Of a DNA stretch of 64,000 nucleotides, positions 46,159 through 61,801 are shown in pieces. How positions within the stretch are numbered: the stretch's first letter is position 1; every line of letters starts with the position of its first letter. The DNA comes from Candidatus Binatia bacterium (GTDB taxonomy: Bacteria > Desulfobacterota > Binatia > HRBIN30 > BPIQ01): contig BPIQ01000001.1 of the NCBI GenBank assembly GCA_026004195.1, positions 461,871 to 525,870 on the forward strand, read 5' to 3'. Made by a program: the position numbers and the translations under genes. Under the pieces are notes generated by a model, which searched no databases, had not been told where the DNA came from, and saw only the letters and a list, made by a program, of their open reading frames with translations.

Positions 46159-47438
46159 GGTCGTCGCTCCCCGCGAAGAATCTGCTCGTAGAGTTCCGTC
46201 ATCCGCGCGACGTGGTTCTCGATCCGGAACCGATCCCGTACCTCTTCCCGAGCCGCATGGCCGAGCCTCGACCGCAGCTCCGGCTCCACGGCCAGCCGCA
46301 GGAGCGCCGCCGCGAGCGCCTCGACGTCTCCCGGCGGCACGAGGAGGCCGGTCCACCCGTCCCGGACGAATTCCACGACACCGCCGGCCGAAGTGGCGAT
46401 CACGGGCTTTCCGAGAGCCATGGCCTCGAGCAGCACGCGGCCGAACGGTTCCGGGCGGACGGACGCGTGCACGACGATGTCCAGGGCCTGCATCACGTCC
46501 GGCACGTCCTGGCGAAAACCCAGAAACAGAACGCGCCGCTCGAGCCCCAACTCGCGCACCCTGCCGACGAGCTTCCGCGCGTACTCTTCGCCCGCCCGAT
46601 GGACACCGCCCACCACGACACACCAGAGGTCCTCGCGTCCCGACGCGATCGCCCGTGCGAACGCTTCGACCAGGACGGCCTGTCCCTTCCATTCCTGGAT
46701 CCCGCCCACGATCCCGCAAACGAGTGCGTCGGGGCCCAGTCCCCATTCCGAGCGGACCTCCTCCCTCGACCTCCCCGGTCGGAAGCGGCCGAAGTCCAAC
46801 GCGTCGTAGATGACGCGGGTACGAGGTGCGACCACGCCCGCCGACTCGCAGTGCAGCCGGATCGCTTCGGTCATGCACACCATCGCGTCGAGCTTCCGTG
46901 CCGCCCAGCGCTCGCGGCTTCCGTACTTCTCGAATCCCTTGACGTGACACACGCAGGGCAGCCCGCAAAGCCAGCTCGCCAGGATGCCGTCGAAGTTCGC
47001 CCGGACGCCGTTGGCCAGGTGCACGACGTCGGGCTTTTCTTCGCGGAAGATCCGGGCCAGTCGCACCGCGGCGGGGAACTCTTCGAACGCGGTCCTGAGC
47101 GAAGTCCGTGCCGCCCGGAAAAGCCGCCGAATTTCGGGGGCACGCCGGGCCCGGTGGTAGACTTGCCAAGCTTGCAGCGGGTGCTCTTTCGGCAACCTCC
47201 TTCTCCGTACGTGTCGGACCCGAACGCCGGCCGCCTCGAGCTTCGGCTCGATCCCCTTGGGCTCGTAGAGCACGAGCACGCTTTTCCAGTTCTCGCCCAT
47301 CCCGTCGATCTGTTGCAGGATCCCCGTGAGCGAGCCCCCGACGATGCCCCCACTCGAAGCCTCGACGAACGCCACGGTCCGCGGCGCCGCGCGCGATTCA
47401 GGATCCCGCAGAACGGCTACGACCGGTTTCGAGCTCAT
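46155..47438 (-). CDS. GT4-family glycosyltransferase
   Basis: …RTVAFVEASSGGIVGGSL…, …EPFGRVLLEAMALGKPVIATSAGGVVEFV…. Confidence 0.85.
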   Translation of the reverse strand: MSSKPVVAVLRDPESRAAPRTVAFVEASSGGIVGGSLTGILQQIDGMGENWKSVLVLYEPKGIEPKLEAAGVRVRHVRRRRLPKEHPLQAWQVYHRARRAPEIRRLFRAARTSLRTAFEEFPAAVRLARIFREEKPDVVHLANGVRANFDGILASWLCGLPCVCHVKGFEKYGSRERWAARKLDAMVCMTEAIRLHCESAGVVAPRTRVIYDALDFGRFRPGRSREEVRSEWGLGPDALVCGIVGGIQEWKGQAVLVEAFARAIASGREDLWCVVVGGVHRAGEEYARKLVGRVRELGLERRVLFLGFRQDVPDVMQALDIVVHASVRPEPFGRVLLEAMALGKPVIATSAGGVVEFVRDGWTGLLVPPGDVEALAAALLRLAVEPELRSRLGHAAREEVRDRFRIENHVARMTELYEQILRGERRP

Positions 47439-48522
47439 CGTTTCCCGCCAGAAGATTTCCGAGCAGTTCGGCCGCGTCGGCGGGCGAGACTTGCGGGGTC
47501 AGTCCGACTTCGTAGGTCGGTACGTCCCGGACCAGTCGTTCCACCGCGGCGAGCCGCCCCTGCTCGATGGCCGAGGGTTCCAGGAGTTCCAGTACGGCTG
47601 CAAAGGCTCTGTATCTGCGAAGGTCGTTCACGAGATCGTTCGAGGCGAAGATCCGCGAAGCGGCTTCCCTCGAAGAGACGGGGCGGACGAACCGTTCGGG
47701 AGCCCGCCTCGGGAAGACGAGCGCGGCCGCCTTTCCCCCCCCGGTCAAGGCCCGGGACGGGAAAAGGAAACCGTCCCGGCCGAGCACGTAGGCGTGGCTC
47801 GGAACGCGCTCGAGAAGACCGAGCCGTTCGCCGAGCCATCGCTGGCTCCAACCGTCGAGAAGGACGGGCTCGGGCACGGCCAGAACCGACCGGCCGTCCG
47901 TCAGAACGAACGTGTCTCCCAGAAATCGGCCCCCGAGCTCCGACACCAGGGCCACGCAGAGCGTCGATTTGCCCACACCGCTCGGTCCCGCCAGAAGGAG
48001 CGTCCGACCACCCACGTCGACCGCCGCGGCGTGAACCGGGTGTGCCGTTCCCTCGTGCTCGAGAGTCCAGAAGACCGGATAGAAAACGAGGTAGTAGAGA
48101 AGCGTCGTGAAACGACGACGGCGCCGCCGCTCGAGATCCCGCAGGTTCCAGAGGCGCCGGAGCCGATCCTTCCACGCCACCTTGCTGAGCCTGTGGTAGT
48201 AGTCACCCCGGAGCTCGATGGTCGAACCGTCCCAGTCGAACACCAAGTGGAGATCTCGCAGGTCGTCGACCCGAAACCAGTAAGCTCGTCCTTTTCCCGA
48301 GTAGAGATCGCGATCCCAGCGCTCGCAGCCCCGGAGCTCCGGATAGGTCGCACGCAGGTCGGAGGGCGGCTGCCCCTCGTGCCAGCGGAGTCGGGCGGAA
48401 ACCCGGACGGGCCCCTCGCACGCACCCCCGGCCTGCCGCAAGTGGACCTCGGCGTACTCGTCCAGCCGAGGCCAATCCGAGGCGAATTCCACGTCCACGC
48501 CGGCGATTCGAACTCGCAGCAT
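47398..48522 (-). CDS. HprK-related serine kinase-like P-loop protein
   Basis: Walker A LLAGPSGVGKSTLCVAL in the C-terminal half, resembling the HprK C-domain. Confidence 0.62.
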   Translation of the reverse strand: MLRVRIAGVDVEFASDWPRLDEYAEVHLRQAGGACEGPVRVSARLRWHEGQPPSDLRATYPELRGCERWDRDLYSGKGRAYWFRVDDLRDLHLVFDWDGSTIELRGDYYHRLSKVAWKDRLRRLWNLRDLERRRRRRFTTLLYYLVFYPVFWTLEHEGTAHPVHAAAVDVGGRTLLLAGPSGVGKSTLCVALVSELGGRFLGDTFVLTDGRSVLAVPEPVLLDGWSQRWLGERLGLLERVPSHAYVLGRDGFLFPSRALTGGGKAAALVFPRRAPERFVRPVSSREAASRIFASNDLVNDLRRYRAFAAVLELLEPSAIEQGRLAAVERLVRDVPTYEVGLTPQVSPADAAELLGNLLAGNDELETGRSRSAGS

Positions 48523-48528
48523 GGGGCG

Positions 48529-49275
48529 TCACATCCGCCGGGCCACCACGACCCAGAAGGAGGGGTTGCGGCTCGGCACGATCTCGACCGCGCGAATCGA
48601 GAACCGCGCCAGGGTCCCCAGACCCAGACGCCTCAGGCGGTTCAGTTTTCTCTGGAGTCCCGGGTGCCGGATCGAGCCCAGGAGTTCGACGACCGAGAAG
48701 CCGGACCCGGCGAGCTCGGCCTCGAGCGACTCCTCGGTGTACAGCTCGTCGAAAATCGGCTGCCGCGCGACTCGGGCCGGCTCCCGCACCCTCCGGTTCG
48801 GAGCGTCGAGGACCAGGATTCCTCCGGGTCGCAGGACCCGTCGCAGCTCGCCGTACAGCCGCTCGCGGTCCGCCGGCGAAAAGTGCCGGACGAACCGGAA
48901 GGAGTAGGCGAAGTCCACGCTGGCGTCGCGCAGGGGGAGAGAAAAGGCATCGGCCCGAACGAGCTGCCACCCGTGGCAAGATGCCGCCCCGAGTCTCGTC
49001 CGGGCCTCCGCCAGCATCGGTTCGCTGAACTCGACCGCTACACCGAACCGAACCTGGGGCAGCTCGGCCGTGAGCCTCGCCGGACCGGGAGCGATCTCGA
49101 GCACGGCTCGAGGCCCGTACCGATCGAGCAGAGACCGCAGGATTTCCACCTGCCTCGTGTGAAGGACCCGGCCCAGGGGGTGGCCGGTTCGCCTCCGCAG
49201 GTAGTCTTCCACGACGTCGGACCTGCGGTAGTAGGAACGAAGGTCCGCGGGGCTGTCCAAAGGTCGGAGTTTCAT
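48529..49275 (-). CDS. Class I SAM-dependent methyltransferase
   Basis: Start MKLRPLDSPADL (ATG 49275, ATGA overlap); SAM motif I VLEIAPGPARLT and motif post-I …DASVDFAYS…. Confidence 0.75.
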   Translation of the reverse strand: MKLRPLDSPADLRSYYRRSDVVEDYLRRRTGHPLGRVLHTRQVEILRSLLDRYGPRAVLEIAPGPARLTAELPQVRFGVAVEFSEPMLAEARTRLGAASCHGWQLVRADAFSLPLRDASVDFAYSFRFVRHFSPADRERLYGELRRVLRPGGILVLDAPNRRVREPARVARQPIFDELYTEESLEAELAGSGFSVVELLGSIRHPGLQRKLNRLRRLGLGTLARFSIRAVEIVPSRNPSFWVVVARRM

Positions 49276-50264
49276 GGCGAGCTGGCGCGAACCTCTACCG
49301 GTCGGAACGAGAGTCGAAGCCCCTCCCGGAGCGAAGTTTCCGGACTCCAGCCTAACTCCCGGACGGCCCGTCGGCAATCGTAGACGGCGCTCCGCGAGGC
49401 CCGCTCGAGGGCGTGCGCCGACACCGGAGGACGCCGCGAAAGGACACGGAACGGGAACTCCGCGACCCGCACGAAAGGCACGACGAACCCTGGCCGCAGG
49501 AACCGAACCCGAAACCTCTCCCCGGAAACCTCCCTTCGCAGCTCGAGATAATCCACCAGGGGGACCTGGGGGTCGACGAGGTGGTAGATCTTCCCTCGCG
49601 CCCCCGGGCATTCGAGAACGAGGCGAATTCCCCGAGCGACGTTGTCGACGAAAGAAAGAGGCAGGAGGTAGCGCCTGGTCCCGAACACGACCCGCGTTCC
49701 TCGCACCCCGAGGCTCCACCGGCCCAGCGGCGGAGGCCGACCCGGGCCGTAGAGAATTCCGGGCCGTACGACGGACACGGGGACACCACGCCGTGCGGCC
49801 TCTACGGCGAGCCGGTCGGCCAGGAGCTTGGACCGCGTGTAGCCGCCGCGGTCGGCGGCGGGATCCTCGAGGGGATTCTCCTCGGTCACCACGTCTCCCC
49901 CCGCCCGCAAGGCCACCACCCCGAGGGAGCTTACGTGGACGAGGAGACCGATCCTTCCCGCCTCCGCGAGTTCGACGAACGTGCGGGTCGAGCCGACGTT
50001 CGTGCGTTCGAACTCCTCCCACGGCCCCCGCGTCGTCACTCTGGCTCCGGCGTGAACCACGGCGTCCACGCCGTCGGCCGCCCGCTCGATGTCCTCGCGA
50101 TCGCGGAGATCGCCCCGACGGATCTCGACCGGAGATGGCAGTCCCTCGAGGCGGCTCGGGTGCGCGGCCCGAACGAAGGCACGAACCTCGTGGCCCGCTT
50201 CGACGAGGTCGCACACCACGCGCGACCCGAGAAAACCGGAAGCCCCGGTGACGAGAACCCTCAT
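49272..50264 (-). CDS. NAD-dependent epimerase/dehydratase (SDR)
   Basis: Start MRVLVTGASGFLGSRVV (ATG 50264, ATGA overlap); …YTRSKLLAD… YxxxK. Confidence 0.8.
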   Translation of the reverse strand: MRVLVTGASGFLGSRVVCDLVEAGHEVRAFVRAAHPSRLEGLPSPVEIRRGDLRDREDIERAADGVDAVVHAGARVTTRGPWEEFERTNVGSTRTFVELAEAGRIGLLVHVSSLGVVALRAGGDVVTEENPLEDPAADRGGYTRSKLLADRLAVEAARRGVPVSVVRPGILYGPGRPPPLGRWSLGVRGTRVVFGTRRYLLPLSFVDNVARGIRLVLECPGARGKIYHLVDPQVPLVDYLELRREVSGERFRVRFLRPGFVVPFVRVAEFPFRVLSRRPPVSAHALERASRSAVYDCRRAVRELGWSPETSLREGLRLSFRPVEVRASSP

Positions 50265-51331
50265 GCGCAAAGCTGCTCGGCCGCCGGCGCGCCCGATGCG
50301 AGCTCCCACATACGCTCGAGAAAGGCGACGACTTCGAGACCCTCCTCGGGCGTCGTGGGCGGCGGCGAACCGGCCGCGAGGTGGAGGTAGAAGCGCCGGA
50401 CGAGCTCGCCCATGCCCGGGTAGAGCCTCTGCCGACCGCGAACGTACTCGACCGAGTTCCGGACGGTCGAGAAGAGAAGCTGACCCGCCTGCTCGAGGTT
50501 GGGGACGACCTTCCCCAGAAGCTTCGGTAGCGTCCGCGGCCTTCGGACGACGAGCGTCATCGTGTTGAGGTCCACTTCCGCCGTCGCCCGGGTACCGAGA
50601 ATGCGGATGCCGTTCAGGACGGGCCGGGCGGACATCGAAAGCGAAAGCGTCCCGAGGCTGCGAGAGCCCCGGGCCAGGGCTCGAACCTCTTCGAGTCCCG
50701 CCGCCCCTGCTCGGGCCTCGACTCGTGGCTCCCGAAGCTCTCCCGCGAATTCTCGAAGGAGGTAGACCGGGTGCGGCGCCACGTCCTCGAGGGGGCCCGC
50801 CGGGAGAGAACCTTTCCAGTCCCCACGGGGTGCGGTGCTACCCGGCTCCGCCGCGCCGCCTTGAAAAGCTTCCACCCCGACGATCTCCCCGAGCTCGCCC
50901 CGTTCCACCATCGCTCGGACGCGCCGCACCGGCGGGTCGAACTTTCGGTTGTGGTCCACCACGAGAGACCGCCCCACCCGTCGCGCGACTTCCACGACCC
51001 GCTCGGCGTCGGCGACCCGCAGCGCCATGGGTTTTTCTACCAGCACGTGCAGGCCCGCCTCGAGCGCGGCGAGGCTCGTCCTCGCGTGGTCCTGGGGCGG
51101 CGTCAGCACGTGCACGGCGTCGAGTTCCACCGCGGAGAGCATGCTCCGGAAGTCGCCGAACCATCGCACGCCCTCTTTCCGCCCGGCGAACGCTCGGGCT
51201 GCTTCTTCCGAGACGTCGCAAACGGCCACGAGACGGACGTGGGGCAATTCGGAGACGTAGGACTCGTGGACGCGCGCGATGCGCCCGCAACCGACGAAAC
51301 CTACGCGAATCGGAGTGGGTACGACCCTCAC
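50261..51331 (-). CDS. Gfo/Idh/MocA-family oxidoreductase
   Basis: GTG 51331 overlaps the upstream stop (GTGA); IRVGFVGCGRIARVH…, …HVLVEKPMAL…. Confidence 0.8.
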   Translation of the reverse strand: MRVVPTPIRVGFVGCGRIARVHESYVSELPHVRLVAVCDVSEEAARAFAGRKEGVRWFGDFRSMLSAVELDAVHVLTPPQDHARTSLAALEAGLHVLVEKPMALRVADAERVVEVARRVGRSLVVDHNRKFDPPVRRVRAMVERGELGEIVGVEAFQGGAAEPGSTAPRGDWKGSLPAGPLEDVAPHPVYLLREFAGELREPRVEARAGAAGLEEVRALARGSRSLGTLSLSMSARPVLNGIRILGTRATAEVDLNTMTLVVRRPRTLPKLLGKVVPNLEQAGQLLFSTVRNSVEYVRGRQRLYPGMGELVRRFYLHLAAGSPPPTTPEEGLEVVAFLERMWELASGAPAAEQLCA

Positions 51332-52344
51332 CGCCCTGGAAGGGCCTCCGGGTAGGCCGCGTATTTCGTGCCTTTCAGGCGGAGCGCGGCGGCGTTGTGA
51401 AACTCCGGCTCCCGATAGTCGATCTCGTGGCCGTTCGACAGGAGGTGCCGCACCTCGAGGATCGCGTCGTCCACCGTCCGCTGCGCTTCGAAGCCGAGCT
51501 CTCGACGGATTCTCTCGAAGCGCACCCGATAACTCCTCGGGTCGTTCCGCGACGGGACGGTCTCGAGGCGGATACCGGGCACGAGCGTGGCGACCTTCCT
51601 GGCCACCTCCTCCACCGTGAAGTTCTGACCGTCGCTCCCGACGTTGTAGACCCGGAAGCCCACGCGCGGAGCTTCGACCGCGCGGGCGAAGGCCTCGGCC
51701 GCGTCCTGGACGTGGACGTGCGGCCTCCACTGCTTCGGGCCGAAGATCCGCACATGGCCCTCGACCACCGCCCGCGCGGTCATCGTGTTGACCATGAGGT
51801 CGAACCGCATCCGGGGCGAGACCCCGCAGACGGTAGCGAGCCGTAACACCACCACGTCGACGGGGCCTCGGTTTTCCGCCAAGAACCGCTCCGAAAGAAT
51901 CCTCGTGCGCGCGTAGAGAGAAACGGGGTTGAGCGGCGACTCCTCGTCGAGGAGGTGGTCCCCGTTGGCGCCGTACACGCTACACGAGGAAGCGAAAACG
52001 ATCCGACGGACGCCGAGCTCGCGGCAGACCGCGAGCAGGCGCTTGGTCGCCTCGAAGTTGACCTCCATGGTGTAGACAGGGTCGAAGTCGCAAGCGGCGT
52101 CGCCGACCAGGGCGGCGAGAGCCACGGCAGCCTCGCATCCCTCGAGAGCTCGCCGCAGGTCCGCCGTGCGACAGATGTCTCCCCGAAGGACCTCGAGCCG
52201 GGGCGTCTCCGGAATCCCCTCGAGTCCGCGGTTCCCGTAGAGAAAGCTCTCGAGGACCCGCACATGGACCCCCCGGTCGAGAAGCTTCCGCACCAGATGA
52301 GAACCCACGTAGCCGGCACCGCCGGTAACCAGGATTTTTCTCAC
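51328..52344 (-). CDS. NAD-dependent epimerase/dehydratase
   Basis: MRKILVTGGAGYVGSHLVRKLL…, …YARTRILSE…. Confidence 0.85.
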   Translation of the reverse strand: MRKILVTGGAGYVGSHLVRKLLDRGVHVRVLESFLYGNRGLEGIPETPRLEVLRGDICRTADLRRALEGCEAAVALAALVGDAACDFDPVYTMEVNFEATKRLLAVCRELGVRRIVFASSCSVYGANGDHLLDEESPLNPVSLYARTRILSERFLAENRGPVDVVVLRLATVCGVSPRMRFDLMVNTMTARAVVEGHVRIFGPKQWRPHVHVQDAAEAFARAVEAPRVGFRVYNVGSDGQNFTVEEVARKVATLVPGIRLETVPSRNDPRSYRVRFERIRRELGFEAQRTVDDAILEVRHLLSNGHEIDYREPEFHNAAALRLKGTKYAAYPEALPGR

Positions 52345-52440: not shown

Positions 52441-53844
52441 CTACGCCGTGCGCGCGGCGACGTGCGTCCCGGCGCGCACGGAGAGTGCCGCCCCCTGACC
52501 GTTCAAAAGGTCGTTCAACGTCGGCACGAAACGGCAGTGAACACCTGCGCTTTCGCATATCTCGACGGTTCTTTCCACCATACTTCGGTCCAGATCGGAA
52601 AGACAAACGAAAACTGTACGAACCCCGTTCGCCTGGATGGCCAGCCCGAGCTCCCCGAGCCCGCCGAGAATCTTCACTCCGTGGATCATGGAACCCCAGC
52701 GCTCCGGCGACTCGTCGATCAGTCCGGCCGGCTCGTAAGGAACGCTCGGGTCCTCGAGGAGCGCGCGGGCGATCTGTTCCCCTCCGACCCCGGCTCCGAC
52801 GATCAGGACTTTTTCCTTTTCCTGCCGTCTGCCGCGGGGGTGGCGGCGGACCCAGCTCCGGAGCGCGAACCGGAAGCCGCCCAGGAGAAACAGCGCGAGT
52901 GCCCAGTCGATCACGACCACGGACCTCGGAAAATTCTGTAGACCCCCGAGAAACGTGAGACCGGCGACCACGAGCGAACCTACGGTCACGGCCCGGAAAA
53001 GGGCCATGAGATCCCAGAGCGCGAAATACTTCAGGATGGCCTGGTATGCCCCGAAGTAGAGAAGAGCCACGGGCCGAACGACGACGAGCAGGAGGAGCGG
53101 GTAGACGAGGAACCAGGGGTTGCGGGGCAAGGTGAAATCGAAGCGGACCAGGTATGCGGCGAGGAAGGAGAGCGCGCTCAGCACGACGTCGGCCGCCATG
53201 AGCGCGATGCGCCGACGACGCCGCCAGAGATACTTCGTCTTGATCGCGCCGACCACCGTGACCCAGAGCCCTCGCAAGAGCAGCTTCAGGTCTCCGAAGA
53301 ACGTGGCCTCCTCCACGTACCTGAGATCCCGCTCGAGCTTCTCCGGCAGGATGTTCTCGATGTAGTACCGCTCCGTGTCGACGATGCCCTCCGGATAGCT
53401 CTCGAGTTCGTCGCGCCCCTCGATCTGGCTCGGCCCCACGATGCCCGGCCGGACGGAAAGGACTTTCCGCTGTCTCGGCGTGTAAAATTGGACGAAATAC
53501 GGGTCTTCCGGCCGTGGCCCGATCAGGCTCATTTCGCCCCGCACGACGTTGATCAGTTGTGGCAGCTCGTCGATCTTGAACCACCGCAGTACTTGTCCCA
53601 CCCGCGTCACCCGGGGGTCTCGCTTCGCCGTGAGCCGCGAACCCATCCGGTAGGCTCCGTCGACCATCGTCCGGAACTTGTAGATCTCGAAGAGCTTGCC
53701 GTCCCGTCCCACCCGCTTCTGGCGGAAGAACACGGGCCCCCGGGAATCGAGCTTGATCAGCAGAGCCACGAGCAGGAAGAGCGGTAACAGCAAAACGAGG
53801 CCCACCGCCGCGACCAGGACGTCGAAAACACGCTTGGCTCTCAT
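52441..53844 (-). CDS. Phosphoglycosyl transferase fusion: N-terminal PglC/WbaP-type sugar-transferase catalytic domain, then 4 TM helices and a Rossmann-like (CoA-binding-type) domain
   Basis: Residues 1-215 form a complete small PGT (re-entrant helix [25 protein letters not shown]; [24 protein letters not shown]; [21 protein letters not shown]). Residues 220-467 resemble the N-terminal half of large WbaP-type PGTs (TM bundle plus [19 protein letters not shown]…). Single uninterrupted 467-aa ORF. Confidence 0.8.
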
Positions 53845-53847
53845 CCG

Positions 53848-55041
53848 TCACGACCTCGCCGGGAGAAGAATTCCTTTGAGTGTCTCCGTCACGTAGTCGA
53901 CGTCGTCTTCCGTGAGAGTCGGGTACAGCGGCAGGGACAGCGCTTCCCGGGCCGCCCGGGTCGCCACGGGGAAATCCTCGGGCGTCCAGCCGAAGGTCTC
54001 GCGGTAGAACGTATGGAGGTGCAAGGGCACGAAGTGCACGCTCGTACCGATGCCCGCACCTCGAAGGCGCTCGATCACTTCGTCCCTCGTCACGCGAAAA
54101 CGGCCTTCCTCGATCCTCACGACGTAGAGATGCCAGGCATGCTCCACGCCGTCCCGCGTCGTCGGCAGACGCAGGCCGGGCACGTCGCGCAACCGCTCCG
54201 TGTACCACCCCACGATTTCGTTCCGCCGAGCCTGCAAGTCCGCAAGGCGCGCGAGCTGCACGAGTCCGATCGCGGCGTTCAGGTCCGTCGTGTTGTACTT
54301 GAACCCGGGGTAGAGAACGTCGTACCGCCAGCTCCCCGACCGCGAGTACCGATTCCAGGCGTCGTAACTGAGACCGTGGAGGCGGCGGGTCCGGACGCGG
54401 GCGGCCAGTTCCTCGTCGCCCGTCGTGAGCATGCCGCCTTCGCCCGTCGTCATGTTCTTCGTCGCATAGAAGCTGAAAGCCGTCGCGCGACCGATCGTGC
54501 CGATCCGACGGCCCCGGTAGGAAGCCGGAAGAGCGTGGGCCGCGTCCTCGACGACCGCGATGCCGCGGGCGTCGGCGATCTCCAGCAGCCGGTCCATCGA
54601 AGCGGGGTGACCGGCGAAGTGGACGGGAACGATGGCGCGTGTTTTCTTCGTGACCTTGCGCTCGACGTCGGCGGGATCGATGTTGAGCGTGTCGGGTTCG
54701 CAGTCCGCGAGCACGAGTCGCGCGCCGCAGTGCAAGACGACGGCCCCGGTGGCCGTGAACGTGTACGTCGGGACGATCACCTCGTCCCCTTCCGCCACAC
54801 CGAGCGCGTCGAGCGCCAGGTGGAGAGCCGCGGTACACGAGGAGACCGCCACGGCGTGCGCGGCGCCGAGCTTTTCGGCGAACGCACTCTCGAACTCCCT
54901 GGTCTTCGGACCCATCGTGATCCAGCCCGTGCGCAGCGTCTCGACCACGGCCGCGACCTCCTCGTCGCCGAGCGACGGCCGGTGGAACGGGATTTCTTTG
55001 CGCGCCCGGGACCCGAGTTCGACCGAGCCCGTGACCATCAA
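53848..55041 (-). CDS. DegT/DnrJ/EryC1/StrS-family PLP-dependent sugar aminotransferase
   Basis: …IPFHRPSLGDEEV…, …FSFYATKNMTTGEGGML… (PLP-lysine), …LSLPLYP…. Confidence 0.9.
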   Translation of the reverse strand: MMVTGSVELGSRARKEIPFHRPSLGDEEVAAVVETLRTGWITMGPKTREFESAFAEKLGAAHAVAVSSCTAALHLALDALGVAEGDEVIVPTYTFTATGAVVLHCGARLVLADCEPDTLNIDPADVERKVTKKTRAIVPVHFAGHPASMDRLLEIADARGIAVVEDAAHALPASYRGRRIGTIGRATAFSFYATKNMTTGEGGMLTTGDEELAARVRTRRLHGLSYDAWNRYSRSGSWRYDVLYPGFKYNTTDLNAAIGLVQLARLADLQARRNEIVGWYTERLRDVPGLRLPTTRDGVEHAWHLYVVRIEEGRFRVTRDEVIERLRGAGIGTSVHFVPLHLHTFYRETFGWTPEDFPVATRAAREALSLPLYPTLTEDDVDYVTETLKGILLPARS

Positions 55042-55132: not shown

Positions 55133-56026
55133 TCATACGGTCCCTCCTTCCTCCGCGAAGGCGAGCAGCCCGACCGCCTTGCGCCAAAAGGCGCTCGGCC
55201 CTCGCGACTCGCTCCCCCGTCGCGCCACCGCCCTGGCCAAGCGGCGAAAAGAGGAGCGGCGGAGAAGCAAAGAAACGGCCGGATGGAACACGACCGCTTG
55301 GCGGATCGGCCGTGGCCGGAACCCCATGGAAAACTTGAACTCGTCGAGCGGCCCGACGGGCTCGAGCGACTCGATTCCGAACGTGACTTCGCGGAGCCCC
55401 CTTTCGTGGAGCATCTCGTGCAGGGTCCGGTAAACCAGGGCGTTGTTCGGGTAAGCACCCAGGGCGTCCGTGCGAGAGCGCGCCACGGAGAACTCGGCCG
55501 AATCTTCGAACACGAGACAAACGAGGAACGCGGCGAGCTCGTTCCCTACCCACGCGCCTCGGACCTCCACGTCGGGCGTTCTCGCCACGGCATCCCAGAA
55601 GAGGTCCCACCGAACCCGGCCCCAGTCTCCCTGCCGGCCTTGCCGCACGACGGTATCCCGGTGAGCCTCGTAGCCGTGACGGCGCGCTTCTTCCGCCGAG
55701 AGCGGGGCGATCTCGCACCGTCGCAAGCCTCGTCGGACCTTGCTCCGCGTGTTGGCGCTCAGCTTCTCGAGCGAGTAGTCCCTGTCGTCGCACACGATCT
55801 GGTAGCTCGCTCTCCCCTTCGCGTGCAGAGGGGCCGTGTAGCGGGCCCCGGCAAAGCCGCCCCGCACGAGCAACTTCCGCAGCTCTTCGGGAGGCGGTTC
55901 GCGGAGCTCGTGGGAAGGCGCGCCGAGCAGGAAATAGCGCGCGGCATCGTACCAGAGCCCCGACTCGGTGCGGACGACACGATGCCCGATGGCGGAAAGA
56001 AAGGATGCGTACTGCTCGCTCTTCAC
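55133..56026 (-). CDS. FemAB-related / GNAT-fold acyltransferase
   Basis: C-terminal ~297 aa of the 742-aa tracked ORF (VKSEQYASFLSAIGHRVVRTESGLWYDAARYFLLGAP…). GTG 56026 overlaps the upstream stop (GTGA); the remaining N-terminal part is antisense shadow. Confidence 0.55.
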   Translation of the reverse strand: MKSEQYASFLSAIGHRVVRTESGLWYDAARYFLLGAPSHELREPPPEELRKLLVRGGFAGARYTAPLHAKGRASYQIVCDDRDYSLEKLSANTRSKVRRGLRRCEIAPLSAEEARRHGYEAHRDTVVRQGRQGDWGRVRWDLFWDAVARTPDVEVRGAWVGNELAAFLVCLVFEDSAEFSVARSRTDALGAYPNNALVYRTLHEMLHERGLREVTFGIESLEPVGPLDEFKFSMGFRPRPIRQAVVFHPAVSLLLRRSSFRRLARAVARRGSESRGPSAFWRKAVGLLAFAEEGGTV

Positions 56027-57447
56027 CGCCGCGCTCCGCCTTCTTCGCACACCGAACGCTGGAGGACGACCGAAAGCCCGATGAACCAGTGGAAGATGAT
56101 CACGCGCCAGAGGTCGCCGACCAGGGAGAAAGCGAGAAAGACCACGAAGCCCGTACGCAGCGTTCGCACGGTCCAGAGAAAGAGCCACGCATCTCGAACG
56201 GCCCTGGCTTCGACGGCTCGCTCCGCTTCGTTGTAATTTCGCAACGTTCTCGCGAACAGCACGAGGTAGAGCACGAGCGACAGGATCCCTCCTTCGGCCA
56301 GCGCGGCCAGGTAGGAACTGTGCGGGGGGGCCACGTACCGGGCCGGGTCGCGCAGGTACCGGACGACTTCCCAGTTGCCGACCCCGACACCGATCAAGGG
56401 GTTCCGCTCGGCGAGGTCCAGCGCCACCTGGAGACCGTAACCCCGACGCTCGATGGACCCTCCTCCCAGGGGGTCCGCTTCCCGGCCGGTACCGGGCAGC
56501 ACGGAAAGTCTCTCGAGACTGCGCTCCGGAACCAGGTTCGCGACGAGCGGGAACGCCAGAACGACGACGGTCGCTCCCGCCAGGAGCTTTTTGACCGAGA
56601 CACCACCTTCGAAAAACAGGAGAAGTCCCGCGAGCGCGAGACCCGCCACGCCACTGCGGGACGCCGTCATGAAGACGGCCAGAACCAAGAGCGGCGTGAG
56701 GACCAGAGCCGAAACTCCGGTCGGAAAACCCGGCCTCGACTGCCACAGGTAACGCAGCGCCAGGATCGCGATGATGCAGAACAAGGCGAGTCGATTGGGG
56801 TTCCCTGCGGCGGCTACGAAAAGACCCCAGTTGGCGCGATACCCGGCGAATCCTTCGCCCCCGAGGACCCGCACGATCCCCGCGAGACCGCTCGCCACGA
56901 AAAGAACGATCGCGAGGACGAAAGCCGCGTACGCGTAACGCCGGTCGCGGACGAAGGCGACGAAAAGAACGAAAAAGGCGAACCGCCCGAACAGGATGTC
57001 GGCGGGGTCCTGCCCCCGTCGCTCGAGCTCCCCGACGAGCGAACGCGTGAGCTCGTCGAAGGGATTGAGGAACCGGGAGAAGAGCCCGATCCCCGTGATG
57101 GCACCCAGAAGAAGCACCTCGGGCCTTTTCAGGTACGACCAGTCGCCGGTCCGGGCCGACCGGTAGAAAAGAACGAGGGCCAGGAGCCCGCCGAGGGCGT
57201 TGTTGAGGCTCACGGGGCCCGCGTTCACGAGCCACGGCGGGTAGGTGTAGAGAAAGGACGAGAGAAGAAAGAGAACACCCAGCTCGGGACGCGAGAGAAC
57301 GAGAGCGAGGCCGGCGAGCCCGACGACGAGAACCGCCGAAAGCTCGATCCCCAACGTCCACTGGAGCCCGGCGACCACGAGGCCCAGGCCGACCGCCAGG
57401 AGGGGGAGCGTCGTCTCCTCACGAGGGCGCGTGGCCACGGTCGCCAT
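56023..57447 (-). CDS. O-antigen ligase-like (Wzy_C) polytopic membrane protein
   Basis: 474 aa, ~10-12 TM helices with a large periplasmic loop (…LAERNPLIGVGVGNWEVV…); resembles exosortase-locus O-antigen-ligase-like proteins. Confidence 0.75.
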   Translation of the reverse strand: MATVATRPREETTLPLLAVGLGLVVAGLQWTLGIELSAVLVVGLAGLALVLSRPELGVLFLLSSFLYTYPPWLVNAGPVSLNNALGGLLALVLFYRSARTGDWSYLKRPEVLLLGAITGIGLFSRFLNPFDELTRSLVGELERRGQDPADILFGRFAFFVLFVAFVRDRRYAYAAFVLAIVLFVASGLAGIVRVLGGEGFAGYRANWGLFVAAAGNPNRLALFCIIAILALRYLWQSRPGFPTGVSALVLTPLLVLAVFMTASRSGVAGLALAGLLLFFEGGVSVKKLLAGATVVVLAFPLVANLVPERSLERLSVLPGTGREADPLGGGSIERRGYGLQVALDLAERNPLIGVGVGNWEVVRYLRDPARYVAPPHSSYLAALAEGGILSLVLYLVLFARTLRNYNEAERAVEARAVRDAWLFLWTVRTLRTGFVVFLAFSLVGDLWRVIIFHWFIGLSVVLQRSVCEEGGARR

Positions 57448-57456
57448 CGACGAACC

Positions 57457-58185
57457 TCAGAGCAGGACTTCGAGGAAGGCGGGAATGTACGTCCGCTTGC
57501 GGTTCAACACGGCTCCGAGAAGCCTCGCCCCCACTCTTTCCAGCTGGCGCTTGGCCGCGTCGGCTTCCGCGACCGGTGTCCGGTCGGCCTCCACGACCAG
57601 AATGACGCCGTCCGCCTTGGGCGCCAGGAGGGAAGTGTCCGCGTAGAGGTTCACCGGAGCGCCGTCGATCACGACGAAATCGAACCGCCCCCGCAACTTC
57701 CCCACCAGATCCCCGAGCACTTCCAGGTCGTCCGGCCGCGGAGCCGCCTCCAGGCTCCCACCCACGGGCAGGACGGAGAATCCCAGTCCCTCGACTCGCA
57801 CGGTGGCCCTTTCCTCGTCCCCGTCGCCGGCGAGCAAACGGGCGAAGCCACAGTCCGGCGGCAGCGCCAGCGTGCGATGCAGGGCGGGAGTCCGAAGGTT
57901 GGCCTCGACGAGCAGCACGCGCGAGTCCTTCTCTTTTCCCAGGGCCCGCGCGAGTCCGAGCGAAACGGTGGTCGCGCCCTCTCCGTGGCCCGGGCTCGTC
58001 ACGAGGATGGTCCGCACGCCCGTGAGTCCCGCCGCCGTCAGCAGATTCGCCCGCAGCTTCCGGTATTCTTCCTCGACCGCGGGAAGTTTCGGCGGCGACG
58101 CCGGCGAGATCCGAGGGAGCGCGGGGGATCGGCTCTGTTCCCGCTCCTGCTCGGCCTTTTTCAGCGCCTCGTAAATCTTGCTCAC
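57457..58185 (-). CDS. BY-kinase-type P-loop ATPase (exosortase-locus EpsG-like tyrosine autokinase)
   Basis: Characteristic N-terminus MSKIYEALKKAEQER; Walker A-like VTSPGHGEGATTVSLGLA; Walker B …FDFVVIDGAPV…. Confidence 0.75.
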   Translation of the reverse strand: MSKIYEALKKAEQEREQSRSPALPRISPASPPKLPAVEEEYRKLRANLLTAAGLTGVRTILVTSPGHGEGATTVSLGLARALGKEKDSRVLLVEANLRTPALHRTLALPPDCGFARLLAGDGDEERATVRVEGLGFSVLPVGGSLEAAPRPDDLEVLGDLVGKLRGRFDFVVIDGAPVNLYADTSLLAPKADGVILVVEADRTPVAEADAAKRQLERVGARLLGAVLNRKRTYIPAFLEVLL

Positions 58186-58199
58186 GGAGTCCGCCTTTC

Positions 58200-59762
58200 T
58201 CAGGCCTCGCCCACCTCGGGGAGCGAACCGAGCGCGGGGAGCCCGAGAAACCGTTCCACGTCGCGTTCGCTACGGATCGTCCGCCCGAAGTACTCCACGC
58301 CGAACGTCCCCGCAGCCGCCACCACCAGCCCCGAAAGCAGCGCCACCAGCGTCGATGCCTGCCGCCGTCCGGTCCTCGGAAGCGGCAGCGCGGGCCGCTG
58401 CACGACCTCGACGTTCACCATCTTTTCCTGGTCCATCGCCTCGGAAACCCGGGCCTCTTCCTCCCGCTTGATGTAAAGTTCGTACGTGTTCCGCCAGTTC
58501 CTGACCTCCTGCAGCAGGCGGTCGTACTCGAGGCTCTTCGCTTTCAGGCGAACGAGCTGTCGGTTCAGCCGGCTCAACTGCTCTTCCAGGGATGCCCGCC
58601 GAGCCCTCGCCTCCTGAAGTTTTCCTTGAAGTTCGAGGAGCTCCCGCACCCGGTCGTCCCGGACGGGATTGCGCCGCAAAATCTGCCGGCCGGGTACCGT
58701 GGGCTTTTTCGCGAGTTCCTGCTCGAGCTCGTTTCCGAGGTCGCGAATTTCCGCCGTCGCGTCGCGCACGTGTCGTTCCTTCTCCGTGTACTTCCGCAAG
58801 AGAGCGATACGGTCGGCCTTCCGAACGGCCAGCTGCTCGGTCAACGCCTCGACGACCGGGTTGACCTCCACGTACTCGTACCACTTGACATCCGGCGGTT
58901 CCGAGGCCACCTGCCGCTCGGTCGTGCGGAGCCGTTCCTCGAGACCGCTGATGGCCGCGCGGACCTCGCGGAGCTCTTGCTCGGTTTTCGAAATGGAAAG
59001 GACGGCGGCCTGGATCTCCGCCTCCGGGTCGACGATGCCCTCGCGGACGGAAAACTCGCGCAGGGCCCTTTCGGCTCGAGCCAGGCTGTCTTGCAGGCTG
59101 CGCCGCTGCTCTTCGTAGAAGCGGGCGAGGCCTTTCGCACCGTGGACGAGCGCGTGGTAGGCCAGATACTCGTCGACGACGCGATTGACGACCAGCGCCG
59201 CCTGCCTCGCCTTGGGGTGATAGTAGTCGATCTGGATGACGTTCGAGTTGCGGATCGGCGTCACCTGCAGGCTGTCGGCGAGCCGCAGCACCTGCCGGCC
59301 GAGCACCCCGCGGCTTTTGTCCTGGTCTCCGCCGTTTTCCGTGCGCGCGCGAACCCGACGTACGGCACCGTTCCCGTTGAGCTTCTCGACGACCCGCTCG
59401 AGCAGTTCCCGGCTCCGGATGATGTGGACCTCGGAGTTGACGACCGATTCGTTCAGGTTGATCGTCGTAAGCCGGGTCAAATCCGTCGGCTGGATGGTGA
59501 TATCCGCCCGCTGCGTGGTGATGAGAACCTTCGCCGTCGCCACGTAGAGCGGTTCCCGCAACAGCACGAGCACGAGGCCGGGAAGCGACACCAGGAGAAA
59601 GAGCGTCAAGAAAAGCCGCCAGCGTTTGAACAGGACGTGCAGGACGTCGCGGATCTGCTCCTGGAGGGCGTAGCCGTTTCCGTTTCCGTTTCCGTTTCCG
59701 TTGGGCCGAAAGCGAGAACCGTTCGCCGGTCGCCCGTTCGTCGCGTTTCCGTTGCCTGCCAT
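58200..59762 (-). CDS. Polysaccharide chain-length determinant protein (Wzz/GumC/EpsF-like)
   Basis: N-terminal (GN)n tract, TM helix (LFLTLFLLVSLPGLVLVLL), long coiled-coil periplasmic domain, C-terminal TM (STLVALLSGLVVAAAGTFGV). Confidence 0.8.
   Translation of the reverse strand: MAGNGNATNGRPANGSRFRPNGNGNGNGNGYALQEQIRDVLHVLFKRWRLFLTLFLLVSLPGLVLVLLREPLYVATAKVLITTQRADITIQPTDLTRLTTINLNESVVNSEVHIIRSRELLERVVEKLNGNGAVRRVRARTENGGDQDKSRGVLGRQVLRLADSLQVTPIRNSNVIQIDYYHPKARQAALVVNRVVDEYLAYHALVHGAKGLARFYEEQRRSLQDSLARAERALREFSVREGIVDPEAEIQAAVLSISKTEQELREVRAAISGLEERLRTTERQVASEPPDVKWYEYVEVNPVVEALTEQLAVRKADRIALLRKYTEKERHVRDATAEIRDLGNELEQELAKKPTVPGRQILRRNPVRDDRVRELLELQGKLQEARARRASLEEQLSRLNRQLVRLKAKSLEYDRLLQEVRNWRNTYELYIKREEEARVSEAMDQEKMVNVEVVQRPALPLPRTGRRQASTLVALLSGLVVAAAGTFGVEYFGRTIRSERDVERFLGLPALGSLPEVGEA
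59664..59692. repeat. Tandem hexanucleotide repeat (CCGTTT)x4.8 inside the wzz-like gene, encoding an N-terminal (Asn-Gly)n tract
   Basis: CCGTTTCCGTTTCCGTTTCCGTTTCCGTT on the plus strand, which reads (AACGGA)n as NGNGNGNGNG on the minus strand. Confidence 0.8.
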
Positions 59763-59810
59763 CGTTCGTTCGAGTCGGGAACCCGGTGTCCCCCCGCAAA
59801 TTCGGAGGCT

Positions 59811-60515
59811 TCAGGGCGTGAAGCCGAACCTCGGGGGAATGGGAAGAAGGTTGCGAATATAGAGTCGCACGAAGGTGGCGGCGTCTCCGATGAACGTGCG
59901 CGGAACGTAGAGGACGTCGTTGGGACCGAGAACGACCGTTTCCGGAAGGCCCCGGTCCACCACTCCGGTGAGGTCGAGCCGCACACCGCGGTAGTCGGTT
60001 TCGTCGGCGGTCACGTAAAGGACGCTGTCGACGCGCGCCGTGTCCGTGAAGCCCCCCCGGTCGAGGATCGCCTGCAGTGGCGTGAGGCCCGGTCTGTAAG
60101 GCACGAAGCCCGGCGCCTTCACCTCGCCACCGACGTAGACCTTCTGCTGCCCCAGCATGGCCACGATGACCGTCACTTCGGGTTCACGGAGACGATCCGA
60201 AGAAAGCTCTTCGATCTCTCGCGCCAGCTCCTCGGGCGTGCGCCCGGCAGCCACGATTTCCCCCGTGGTCTCGAGCGAGATCTTTCCGTCGGGACGAACG
60301 GGCACCCGAGTGTCGTACTCCGGGTGGTAGGTGAACTTCACGCGAAGGAGATCGCCCGGCTGGAGGCGGTAGAGCCCGTCGGCCGGCCGCGCAGGGACGG
60401 AGTCAAGCGGCGGCAGGGGCTGCACTTCGGGACGGCGTGCTCCGCATGCCGTGAAAACCGCGAGTGCGAAGACCGCGCAAACGAGAAACCGGAGAGAACG
60501 ATCGAGAAAATCCAT
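59811..60515 (-). CDS. Polysaccharide export outer-membrane lipoprotein (Wza/EpsE-like, Poly_export + SLBB)
   Basis: Start at MDFLDRSLRFLVCAVFALAVFTAC (lipobox; ATG 60515); …LQPGDLLRVKF…, …RPDGKISL…. Confidence 0.75.
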   Translation of the reverse strand: MDFLDRSLRFLVCAVFALAVFTACGARRPEVQPLPPLDSVPARPADGLYRLQPGDLLRVKFTYHPEYDTRVPVRPDGKISLETTGEIVAAGRTPEELAREIEELSSDRLREPEVTVIVAMLGQQKVYVGGEVKAPGFVPYRPGLTPLQAILDRGGFTDTARVDSVLYVTADETDYRGVRLDLTGVVDRGLPETVVLGPNDVLYVPRTFIGDAATFVRLYIRNLLPIPPRFGFTP

Positions 60516-60580
60516 GGTGTTCACGGCCGGCACGCCTTGTCCGACAACGCCGCCGTCCGTGTCGACTCGCTGTCGGCCGA

Positions 60581-61801
60581 TTATCCATATGACCCCCAAA
60601 GCGCCTTTTTTTGCAACAGGTTTTTGCAGTCCTGCAACGGCGTATGCACCCCCCGGCGAAAACTCGTCACTCGGTCGTAGACGGCCTCGAAACCGGTCAG
60701 AACTTCGGACCGCAGTTGTCCGAGGGGAACCGCTTCCTCTCGGGCCGGACCTCCCGAGTCGAGCGCCACGAGAATCGCCCGGGCCAGACCCGCCGAGTCT
60801 CCGTCAAAGGAAAAAACCCGAGTGCCCGCTTTCCGCCCGACCAGGCGAGCGACGGCCCGGCTCGTCACTACGGGAAGGCCCGTCGCGAGGTAGTTCCAGA
60901 TCTTGATGGGGAAGCCGGACCACGAAGTTCGCGGACACACGAGAACGTCGGCGGCGCAGAGAGCGGACCAGACTCCTTCGAAGTTCTCCGCCACCCGAAT
61001 TTCCACGTTGGGCCTCCCGGCCACGAGCGTATCCGTCCCGAGACTCGGCGAGCCGGCATGCGTGACGATCCAGAGTTTCGTCTCGGGCCTGACACGAGCG
61101 ACGGCGTCCATGGCTCGTAGGAGAGCCGGAATGTCCTGGTACGGGTCCAGATTCCCGGCATAGACGACCAGCGGCCCCTCCGGTTCGCGGAGCTTCGGAA
61201 AGTCCCTCGCGTGGCGTCGCGGCACGGCTACGGCGGGCGGTAGAATCACGAGTTTCTCCTCGGGAACGCCGCACCGGCGCAAGAACCGCGCCATGGGTTC
61301 GGACAGGGCAACGACAGCGTCGGCGGCGGCGGGGACCCGACGGTCGAGATACCGGGCCAGCAGTCGGGCACATTTCCGTCCCGGGGCCGTGCGAAAGTAA
61401 CGGGCGAGTTCGTCGCTCATCACGTTGTGACCGTGGTAAACGACCGGGATGCCCGTCCACCGTCGTACGAGGTAGGCCAGAATCGGCGCCTCGTAGTTGT
61501 GAGCGTGGATCACGTCGATCGAGAAGACCCTGACGACGCGGAACAGTGTCGGGAGGAGGAGGAGCGTGTAGGCGACCCTCCGGAGGGAAGGCCCGTAACA
61601 TTCGGGGCGCCCGAGAAACGAGGGTGCGCGGTGGACCCACACGCGCTCGGGAGGAGTCCAGGGCTGCCCCGCGGCGTAGCACACGACGTGCACCTCGTGA
61701 CCGCGCTCCGCCAGGCCTTCGGCCAGGTCACGAACGAGGACCTGCGAGCCCCGCGGCGACGGAAACGGGGCCGCGACGACCATGGCGATCCGGTACGTCA
61801 T
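60581..61801 (-). CDS. GT4-family glycosyltransferase
   Basis: Start MTYRIAMVVAAPFPSPRGSQV (ATG 61801, ATGA overlap with the upstream stop). The 47 upstream codons of the tracked ORF are rejected. Confidence 0.85.
   Translation of the reverse strand: MTYRIAMVVAAPFPSPRGSQVLVRDLAEGLAERGHEVHVVCYAAGQPWTPPERVWVHRAPSFLGRPECYGPSLRRVAYTLLLLPTLFRVVRVFSIDVIHAHNYEAPILAYLVRRWTGIPVVYHGHNVMSDELARYFRTAPGRKCARLLARYLDRRVPAAADAVVALSEPMARFLRRCGVPEEKLVILPPAVAVPRRHARDFPKLREPEGPLVVYAGNLDPYQDIPALLRAMDAVARVRPETKLWIVTHAGSPSLGTDTLVAGRPNVEIRVAENFEGVWSALCAADVLVCPRTSWSGFPIKIWNYLATGLPVVTSRAVARLVGRKAGTRVFSFDGDSAGLARAILVALDSGGPAREEAVPLGQLRSEVLTGFEAVYDRVTSFRRGVHTPLQDCKNLLQKKALWGSYG

Follow-up and report, generated by a model that had tools for sequence, protein, structure and literature searches.

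A phosphoglycosyl transferase with reversed domain order in an exopolysaccharide cluster of Candidatus Binatia

The gene and its domain order

The stretch of DNA analysed here (the window) comprises 64,000 nucleotides of contig BPIQ01000001.1 from a Candidatus Binatia bacterium (positions 461,871 to 525,870), and its minus strand carries a Wzx/Wzy-type exopolysaccharide cluster, as assigned by Pfam. Within this cluster lies a gene for a phosphoglycosyl transferase (PGT) in which the catalytic domain comes first and is followed by four transmembrane (TM) helices and a Rossmann-like domain, the 'DUF' (domain of unknown function) of large PGTs. The open reading frame (ORF) starts with ATG, contains no in-frame internal stop and begins 3 nt past the stop codon of an upstream DegT gene. 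The encoded protein shows 100% identity to KatS3mg076_0458 from a Candidatus Binatia metagenome-assembled genome (MAG). An earlier reading of the DNA without database searches (the sequence-only reading) had delimited this single 467-residue ORF correctly, leaving the strand unstated, and had proposed a permuted domain order.

Pfam assigns two domains to the protein, PF02397 (Bac_transf) at residues 4–196 (E 7.4e-60, 202 bits against a cut-off of 27) and PF13727 (CoA_binding_3) at residues 265–441 (E 6.1e-15, 56.1 bits against a cut-off of 25); the same scan gives no second catalytic domain and no PF02719. TIGR03025, the NCBIfam model of large exopolysaccharide PGTs (445 positions), matches in a non-collinear manner: residues 2–198 correspond to model positions 256–440, and the C-terminal 267 residues alone correspond to positions 2–233 (92 bits, E 4.9e-26). 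The two halves are exactly swapped relative to the model, which, together with the Pfam coordinates, confirms the proposed order. At 329.8 bits, the summed TIGR03025 score lies above the cut-off of the family (295.55), so the swap would go unnoticed in score-based annotation. Hydropathy and an AlphaFold2 (AF2) model (mean pLDDT 83.9) give the layout as an N-terminal hydrophobic helix, the catalytic domain, two amphipathic helices, four TM helices and the Rossmann domain. The full model aligns with WbaP in Foldseek over 195 columns only, as expected for proteins of differing domain order. A complete catalytic domain (CAT) and a complete TM4-Rossmann module (MOD) are present.

The N-terminal half is PglC-like, in agreement with the sequence-only reading. 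Its Foldseek TM-score against PglC (8g1n/8e37) is 0.77–0.80 normalised to the target, with a probability of 1.00, and it shares 50.3% identity with Shigella sonnei WbgY and 34% with PglC. The catalytic dyad D92-E93 aligns with the DE of 'DELPQL' in PglC and is invariant in 40 homologues; the PRP motif (P110-R111-P112) is also present, aligned with PglC and invariant in homologues. The hydrophobic helix at residues 1–33, which reaches a hydropathy maximum of 3.03 and is modelled as helical from residue 2 to 33, has its homologue in PglC's re-entrant membrane helix and aligns with PglC from residue 11 of the latter. Its N-terminus is basic (K4, R5), and D8 and P21 are invariant in the 40-sequence alignment. 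The Ser of the Ser-Pro motif is replaced by Leu, and AF2/DSSP gives one unbroken N-terminal helix. By analogy with PglC, this helix is predicted to dip into the cytoplasmic leaflet and return rather than span the membrane, with the catalytic domain placed in the cytoplasm.

The catalytic domain is joined to TM1 by 13 residues that open an arginine-rich cytoplasmic stretch, where W207, R208, R209 and R210 are invariant in the same alignment. AF2 places the TM helices at residues 210–234, 244–263, 276–299 and 307–334, and hydropathy gives four hydrophobic segments at about residues 212–328. For a separate model of residues 201–467, the alignment with WbaP (8t53_A) covers 251 columns (E 3.7e-5). 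The Rossmann domain, modelled at residues 344–440 with five strands and three helices, resembles 3nkl, the N-terminal domain of a WbpM-like enzyme (Foldseek TM-score 0.72–0.74 normalised to the target; phmmer E 1.3e-4 for the PGT). The description of this half as WbaP-like in the sequence-only reading stands on PF13727, TIGR03025 positions 2–233 and the match to 8t53_A, but the half is equally PglF/WbpM-like. In the GxGxxG nucleotide-binding motif (G350-A-G-V-G-G355, translation checked), G350, A351, G354, G355 and the adjoining E356 are invariant, and G352 is at least 90% conserved. The module is under selection: its number of invariant columns, those of the GxGxxG motif included, is close to that of the catalytic half.

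The chain ends about 20 residues beyond the last Rossmann helix, in a short, poorly conserved tail (pLDDT 32–51), and homologues stop 18–25 residues past 'VPxLxDLL'. It thus falls short of a hairpin-like motif that is retained as 'VxVEDLLGR' in PglF-like proteins and in relatives of the architecture CAT-MOD-PS2 (PS2 denotes PF02719, Polysacc_synt_2, the PglF/CapD/WbpM dehydratase), and as VDVxDLGG in large PGTs. In the latter the motif sits about 20 residues ahead of the catalytic domain, which is the position of the hairpin apex in WbaP (Ser259 against a catalytic-domain start near 279; PMC10942596 and alignment), and from this position it is predicted to form the hairpin. The AF2 models of the full-length PGT and of residues 201–467 contain no C-terminal β-hairpin. 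Given the missing motif and the early chain end, the β6/β7 hairpin, which makes up the larger part of the dimer interface in WbaP, is probably absent from the PGT.

Lys and Arg together number 7 before TM1, 8 after TM4 and 0–1 in the other loops. From the basic stretches that flank the bundle, both of its ends are predicted to be cytoplasmic, and with them the Rossmann domain. Because the helix predicted to be re-entrant starts and finishes at the cytoplasmic face, as does the bundle with its even number of TM helices, exchanging the order of the two modules leaves the topology unchanged, and the reversed order is topologically neutral. The consequence for membrane topology that the sequence-only reading anticipated was not seen; the structural consequence that emerges instead is the probable loss of the C-terminal β-hairpin of the Rossmann domain.

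Table 1. Positions of the PGT gene, its parts and the neighbouring genes in the window
Feature	Residues	Position	Strand	Remark
Whole PGT gene	1–467	52441..53844	minus	catalytic domain, four TM helices, Rossmann 'DUF'
N-terminal hydrophobic helix	1–33	53746..53844	minus	K4, R5, D8, P21
PF02397 Bac_transf catalytic domain	4–196	53257..53835	minus	Pfam
Catalytic dyad	92–93	53566..53571	minus	D92-E93
Junction to TM1	197–209	53218..53256	minus	13 residues
Four-TM-helix bundle	210–334	52843..53217	minus	hydropathy and AF2; TIGR03025 positions 2 to about 130
Cytoplasmic Rossmann-like domain ('DUF'/CoA_binding_3 core)	344–447	52504..52815	minus	PF13727, AF2
GxGxxG motif	350–355	52780..52797	minus	nucleotide-binding motif
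Tail and stop	448–467	52441..52503	minus	short, poorly conserved
DegT/DnrJ/EryC1 aminotransferase		53848..55041	minus	upstream of PGT; PF01041, E 2.5e-131; 3-nt gap
Extended short-chain dehydrogenase/reductase (SDR)		51328..52344	minus	downstream of PGT; PF01370 Epimerase, E 2.3e-44; 96-nt gap
GFO/IDH/MocA oxidoreductase		~50261–51310	minus	Pfam; start approximate
Second SDR		49272–50309	minus	Pfam
Wza (Poly_export), Wzz, AAA_31 kinase-like and Wzy_C polymerase/ligase-like genes		56023..60599	minus	Pfam

A family that shares the reversed order

All of the nearest 120 homologues (61–71% identity) are collinear with the PGT over 90–100% of its length, with the catalytic half first. They come from independent assemblies held by NCBI, JGI, ENA and Logan and fall into at least 120 clusters at 90% identity; the named sources include Binatia, Vicinamibacterales, Kryptonia and 'Deltaproteobacteria'. 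These sequences bear directly on the concern that an assembly or sequencing artefact merged two genes through a missed stop or a frameshift near residues 200–225, a concern that the sequence-only reading had itself raised for residues ~215–225. Such an artefact is possible a priori; there is an internal Met216, and P0152 begins at the equivalent position but is perhaps a truncated gene call. Against this, the ORF has no in-frame stop, every one of the 120 homologues is collinear through the junction, and the junction is gapless in the alignments, with W207 and R208–R210 invariant, which refutes a missed stop and makes any merger of two genes exceedingly improbable.

P0152 (256 residues) consists of the TM4-Rossmann module alone and is 56% identical to residues 216–453 of the PGT; it may represent either a stand-alone module or a shortened gene call. 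In roughly one third of the 120 close homologues the annotated protein carries 29–39 extra N-terminal residues, which are probably start-codon miscalls overlapping the upstream DegT gene.

The order extends well beyond the nearest relatives. An exhaustive HMMER search of 1.84 billion representatives at 50% identity returned 77,493 matches, of which the best 150 were classified by domain probes and hidden Markov models (HMMs). The catalytic domain precedes the module in about 130 of these 150. CAT-MOD accounts for 56–73 and CAT-MOD-PS2 for 63–65 of them, and smaller numbers are CAT-MOD-SDR with PF01370 (3), DegT-CAT-MOD (2) and the canonical MOD-CAT (3). Pfam finds PF02397, PF13727 and PF02719 together in P0128, P0129, P0132, P0137 and P0144, PF01370 in P0126, and PF01041 in P0122 and P0212. 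The three SDR fusions (P0126, P0187 and P0236) share 41–49% identity with the PGT, and in P0126 the SDR is attached through a low-complexity linker of about 50 residues. The search for homologues of the same order that the sequence-only reading had suggested thus uncovers a large conserved family rather than a single oddity. The PGT belongs to this mostly uncultured CAT-MOD(-X) family, where X frequently stands for a PglF-type dehydratase and at times for the neighbouring SDR, and where the DegT aminotransferase is in some cases fused at the front. The source annotations of its members are generic, either 'sugar transferase' or 'FlaA1/EpsC-like NDP-sugar epimerase / ... glycosyltransferase'.

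The breadth of the family also bears on whether the module does anything. It might be a functionless remnant of a lost dehydratase, at most a passive membrane anchor, in a protein that works as a small PGT; the catalytic domains of large PGTs are by themselves sufficient for activity (cited in PMC12776464), and the dimerising hairpin is missing here. We consider this improbable, since the module matches the catalytic domain in strength of conservation, with the GxGxxG motif and many invariant Rossmann residues, and is kept across both the 90%-identity clusters and the ~130 representatives at 50% identity.

Several proteins recovered in the searches have unusual compositions. P0144 (953 residues), a PGT-TM4-DUF-dehydratase chain, ends in a response-regulator receiver domain, which recalls the EpsW-EpsZ regulation (PMC12802240). 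P0155, P0161, P0164, P0179, P0188 and P0209 (786–863 residues) are CAT-MOD proteins with a C-terminal extension of about 370 residues in the place of the dehydratase, for which Pfam gave no match at E <= 1e-5. P0257 and P0269 (~430 residues) have two tandem catalytic domains. Three loci that looked like full-length matches in the genome scan were set aside: L031 and L023 encode canonical large PGTs, and L045 is an adjacent pair of PglF-like and small-PGT genes.

Genomic context and the origin of the order

The PGT gene is flanked by the DegT aminotransferase gene, whose product is 45.6% identical to S. sonnei WbgX, and by the PF01370-type SDR gene (Table 1). The cluster also holds several GT4 glycosyltransferases, a carbamoyltransferase and a methyltransferase, as assigned by Pfam. 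The cassette order DegT-PGT-SDR-GFO-SDR is kept in five related loci (L001, L002, L003, L005 and L006), and Wzx/Wzy-pathway genes are kept upstream in L003, L005 and L006. DegT and SDR are the very domains that are fused to the PGT in relatives, which constitutes Rosetta-stone evidence for their joint action. No ORF of the window is among the matches to a PF02719-type probe.

The downstream SDR reads 'SLYARTRI', that is, YxxxR instead of the canonical catalytic YxxxK. The Arg is kept in the orthologues of all five loci and in the fused P0187 and P0126, and Lys is retained in P0236 and in Rhizobiaceae SDRs. A 374-residue ORF at 47398–48522 on the minus strand has only sub-threshold P-loop and HPr-kinase-like Pfam matches and is 40–43% identical to counterparts in L003 and L006. 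L005 (CAXQPB010000083.1) is labelled as a Nitrosopumilus sp. MAG; its 63% G+C and its bacterial Wza-Wzz-DegT-PGT-SDR cluster, syntenic with the Binatia loci, indicate that the contig is almost certainly mis-binned.

The sequence-only reading left two origins for the order, a circular permutation or a gene fusion, and these are the right pair of hypotheses. With moderate confidence, we take the protein for a real, functional initiating PGT of a Wzx/Wzy-type cluster, whose order most probably stems from the fusion of adjacent small-PGT and PglF-like genes. Under this reading, neighbouring genes such as those still separate in S. sonnei wbgX-wbgY-wbgZ would have been joined end to end, and the dehydratase domain would later have been lost or replaced in the lineage of the window PGT, a direction of evolution that we infer from comparison of present-day proteins.

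The unfused arrangement was found by tblastn against plasmids in the form I O-antigen cluster of S. sonnei, where WbgX (DegT) is followed by WbgY (a 196-residue small PGT) and, after a gap of 14 nt, by WbgZ (639 residues, TM4-DUF-PF02719, annotated 'NDP-sugar epimerase/dehydratase'). The WbgY C-terminus and the WbgZ N-terminus map almost end to end onto the CAT-MOD junction, and the WbgZ module is 23% identical to that of the window PGT. Rhizobiaceae plasmids carry the same trio of small PGT, WbpM-like protein and SDR. About half of the family has a PglF-type dehydratase, so the module is as much 'PglF/WbpM-like' as 'WbaP-like', which favours fusion over permutation. The CAT-MOD-PS2 proteins retain the PglF-type linker 'lrxVxVEDLLGR' and the spacing between MOD and SDR of free PglF-like proteins. 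In CAT-MOD and CAT-MOD-PS2 alike the junction is gapless, with a median of 21 residues between the positions of residues 196 and 216 of the window PGT, and this common length and pattern suggest that the junction arose once. In pairwise BLAST the module scores best with WbpM-like modules, WbgZ included (65–74 bits), against at most 58 bits with modules of large PGTs.

Several results weigh against such a fusion. In neighbour-joining trees of the module the deep nodes have bootstrap values near zero; in a concatenated tree with a poorly supported backbone the window PGT is equidistant from large PGTs (1.28–1.39) and from the S. sonnei pair (1.36). The catalytic-domain tree groups the family together with a bootstrap of 19. 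The NCBIfam scan of the module returns large-PGT models only and no dehydratase family. The downstream SDR is of the PF01370 type and matches PF02719 only weakly, unlike PglF, so the dehydratase has not simply been split off; a simple fission of a PglF-like gene into the module and the downstream SDR is thereby ruled out. The module of the window PGT also scores 148 bits with an HMM of 10 large-PGT sequences and 112 bits with an HMM of seven PglF modules.

This last result also counts for the alternative, a true circular permutation, in which tandem large-PGT genes (MOD-CAT, MOD-CAT) would have fused and lost the first MOD and the last CAT, with the domains of neighbouring genes added later. 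Both halves match TIGR03025 best, in swapped order. The duplication route is open, because a tandem MOD-CAT-MOD-CAT protein exists (P0250, 880 residues, two large PGTs in one chain), and secondary fusions of neighbours clearly occur, as the linker-borne SDR of P0126 and the DegT fusions attest. A permutation nevertheless needs more steps, and in about half of the family it must recreate by chance the PglF architecture, the spacing between MOD and dehydratase and the 'EDLLGR' linker. The catalytic domain is moreover closest to a free small PGT that stands beside a PglF-like gene (WbgY, 50%), and the return of large-PGT models only by NCBIfam may be biased, depending on the presence of a model for the PglF N-terminal module. 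The outcome of the competition between profiles varies with their depth: a PglF profile of three sequences loses to the large-PGT model, and with seven the results are split, 48 of 60 CAT-MOD-PS2 modules, a point against permutation, and 34 of 60 CAT-MOD modules preferring the PglF HMM. In hhalign the family profile scores 289–336 with either the large-PGT or the PglF profile against 220 between those two, an 'intermediate' position that may reflect only the greater depth of the family profile. On balance, permutation is a possible but clearly less probable origin than the fusion of adjacent genes.

Relation to known enzymes and proposed role

The window PGT fits none of the three published classes of monoPGT, small, large and bifunctional, as they are defined. 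What defines a large PGT is a TM bundle and DUF at the N-terminus (PMC10942596, PMC11257628, PMC12802240). WbaP, WcaJ and CpsE (TIGR03025/TIGR03023/TIGR03022) have the same four TM helices, PF13727 DUF and PF02397 domain as the window PGT and share the role of initiating enzyme in Wzx/Wzy pathways; in the window PGT, however, the catalytic domain (4–196) precedes the module (210–447). The DUF of WbaP carries the β6/β7 dimer hairpin, before which the DUF of the window PGT ends, and the hairpin is not common to all large PGTs (EpsZ; PMC12802240). EpsZ of Myxococcus xanthus has, like the window PGT, a DUF with a core of five strands and three helices and no C-terminal hairpin (PMC12802240), but its domain order is canonical and it is activated by the response regulator EpsW. 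Beside the gene of the window PGT no EpsW-like gene was seen, though no search was aimed at one.

The small PGTs that stand beside PglF-like genes (S. sonnei/Plesiomonas WbgY, Rhizobium WreU and Campylobacter PglC) share the catalytic fold, and in S. sonnei the order of DegT, PGT and TM4/DUF genes is identical to that in the window. These proteins end after the catalytic domain and leave TM4-DUF to the next gene, whereas in the window both are in one polypeptide, with about 260 conserved residues beyond a catalytic domain. The dehydratases PglF, WbpM, CapD and WbgZ (TM4-DUF-PF02719) have the same TM4 and Rossmann module; the window PGT differs from them by the absence of PF02719 and of the 'EDLLGR' linker and by the PGT domain in front. 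Bifunctional PGTs such as Neisseria PglB are defined by an extra catalytic domain (PMC10942596, PMC11257628, PMC10186338, PMC12802240). Relatives with PF02719, PF01370 or PF01041 fused to them have this extra domain, and P0128, P0132, P0137, P0212 and P0144 fit the class; the window PGT has no second catalytic domain. O'Toole et al. 2021, as cited in PMC12802240, reported 'sugar-modifying' fusions, which probably include the relatives that carry a dehydratase. The reversed order is undescribed in the accessible literature, a scope that does not extend to O'Toole et al. (PNAS 2021), so an earlier description is possible.

By analogy with PglC and WbgY, the monotopic catalytic half would move a sugar-1-phosphate from a UDP-sugar onto undecaprenyl phosphate at the cytoplasmic face. 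A sugar of the PglF pathway is suggested by the 50% match to WbgY, by the adjacent DegT and SDR genes and by the relatives fused to a dehydratase, and the substrate is probably of the 4-keto or 4-amino-6-deoxy-HexNAc type. Small PGTs of this kind use the products of PglF-type dehydratases, UDP-KdgNAc and UDP-FucNAc4N as well as UDP-diNAcBac, and an SDR can act after transfer of the sugar to the lipid (PMC11626204).

The module probably anchors the PGT, regulates it through nucleotide binding at the conserved GxGxxG motif and keeps sugar-modifying enzymes beside the transferase. The DUF of WbaP binds UMP, UDP and UTP, UMP inhibits WbaP activity, and dimerisation proceeds through the C-terminal hairpin (PMC10942596); this analogy, together with the conserved GxGxxG, suggests nucleotide sensing. 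As the chain ends before a WbaP-type dimerising hairpin, any dimerisation or activation must work differently. The hairpin-less EpsZ requires a partner, a response regulator (PMC12802240).

A more far-reaching reading, which we put forward only tentatively and regard as rather unlikely, is that the TM4-Rossmann module serves, independently of its position, as a membrane scaffold and sensor of nucleotides that can carry a PGT on its N-terminus and a sugar-modifying SDR on its C-terminus simultaneously. If so, the CAT-MOD(-dehydratase) family would link large PGTs and PglF-like dehydratases both evolutionarily and physically; the sharing of the module by these functionally unrelated enzymes was found puzzling in the study of the WbaP structure (PMC10942596). 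The family would then mark a membrane 'metabolon' of DegT, PGT and SDR, and its hairpin-less members would depend on partners for dimerisation or activation.

The window PGT is a modest variation on a familiar class of enzymes, ordinary in its chemistry and pathway role, and since these are already known, the practical consequence is modest. Score-based annotation silently places this large family of reversed order, which lies outside the established classification, among ordinary large PGTs. As the family shows, the TM4-Rossmann module functions whether it precedes or follows the catalytic domain, and in about half of the members it connects a PGT to a PglF-type dehydratase within a single chain. 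The family also has a bearing on the sharing of this module by PGTs and dehydratases, and its members are natural constructs with which to probe the role of the module in dimerisation, in the sensing of UMP or other nucleotides and in the scaffolding of sugar-modifying enzymes.

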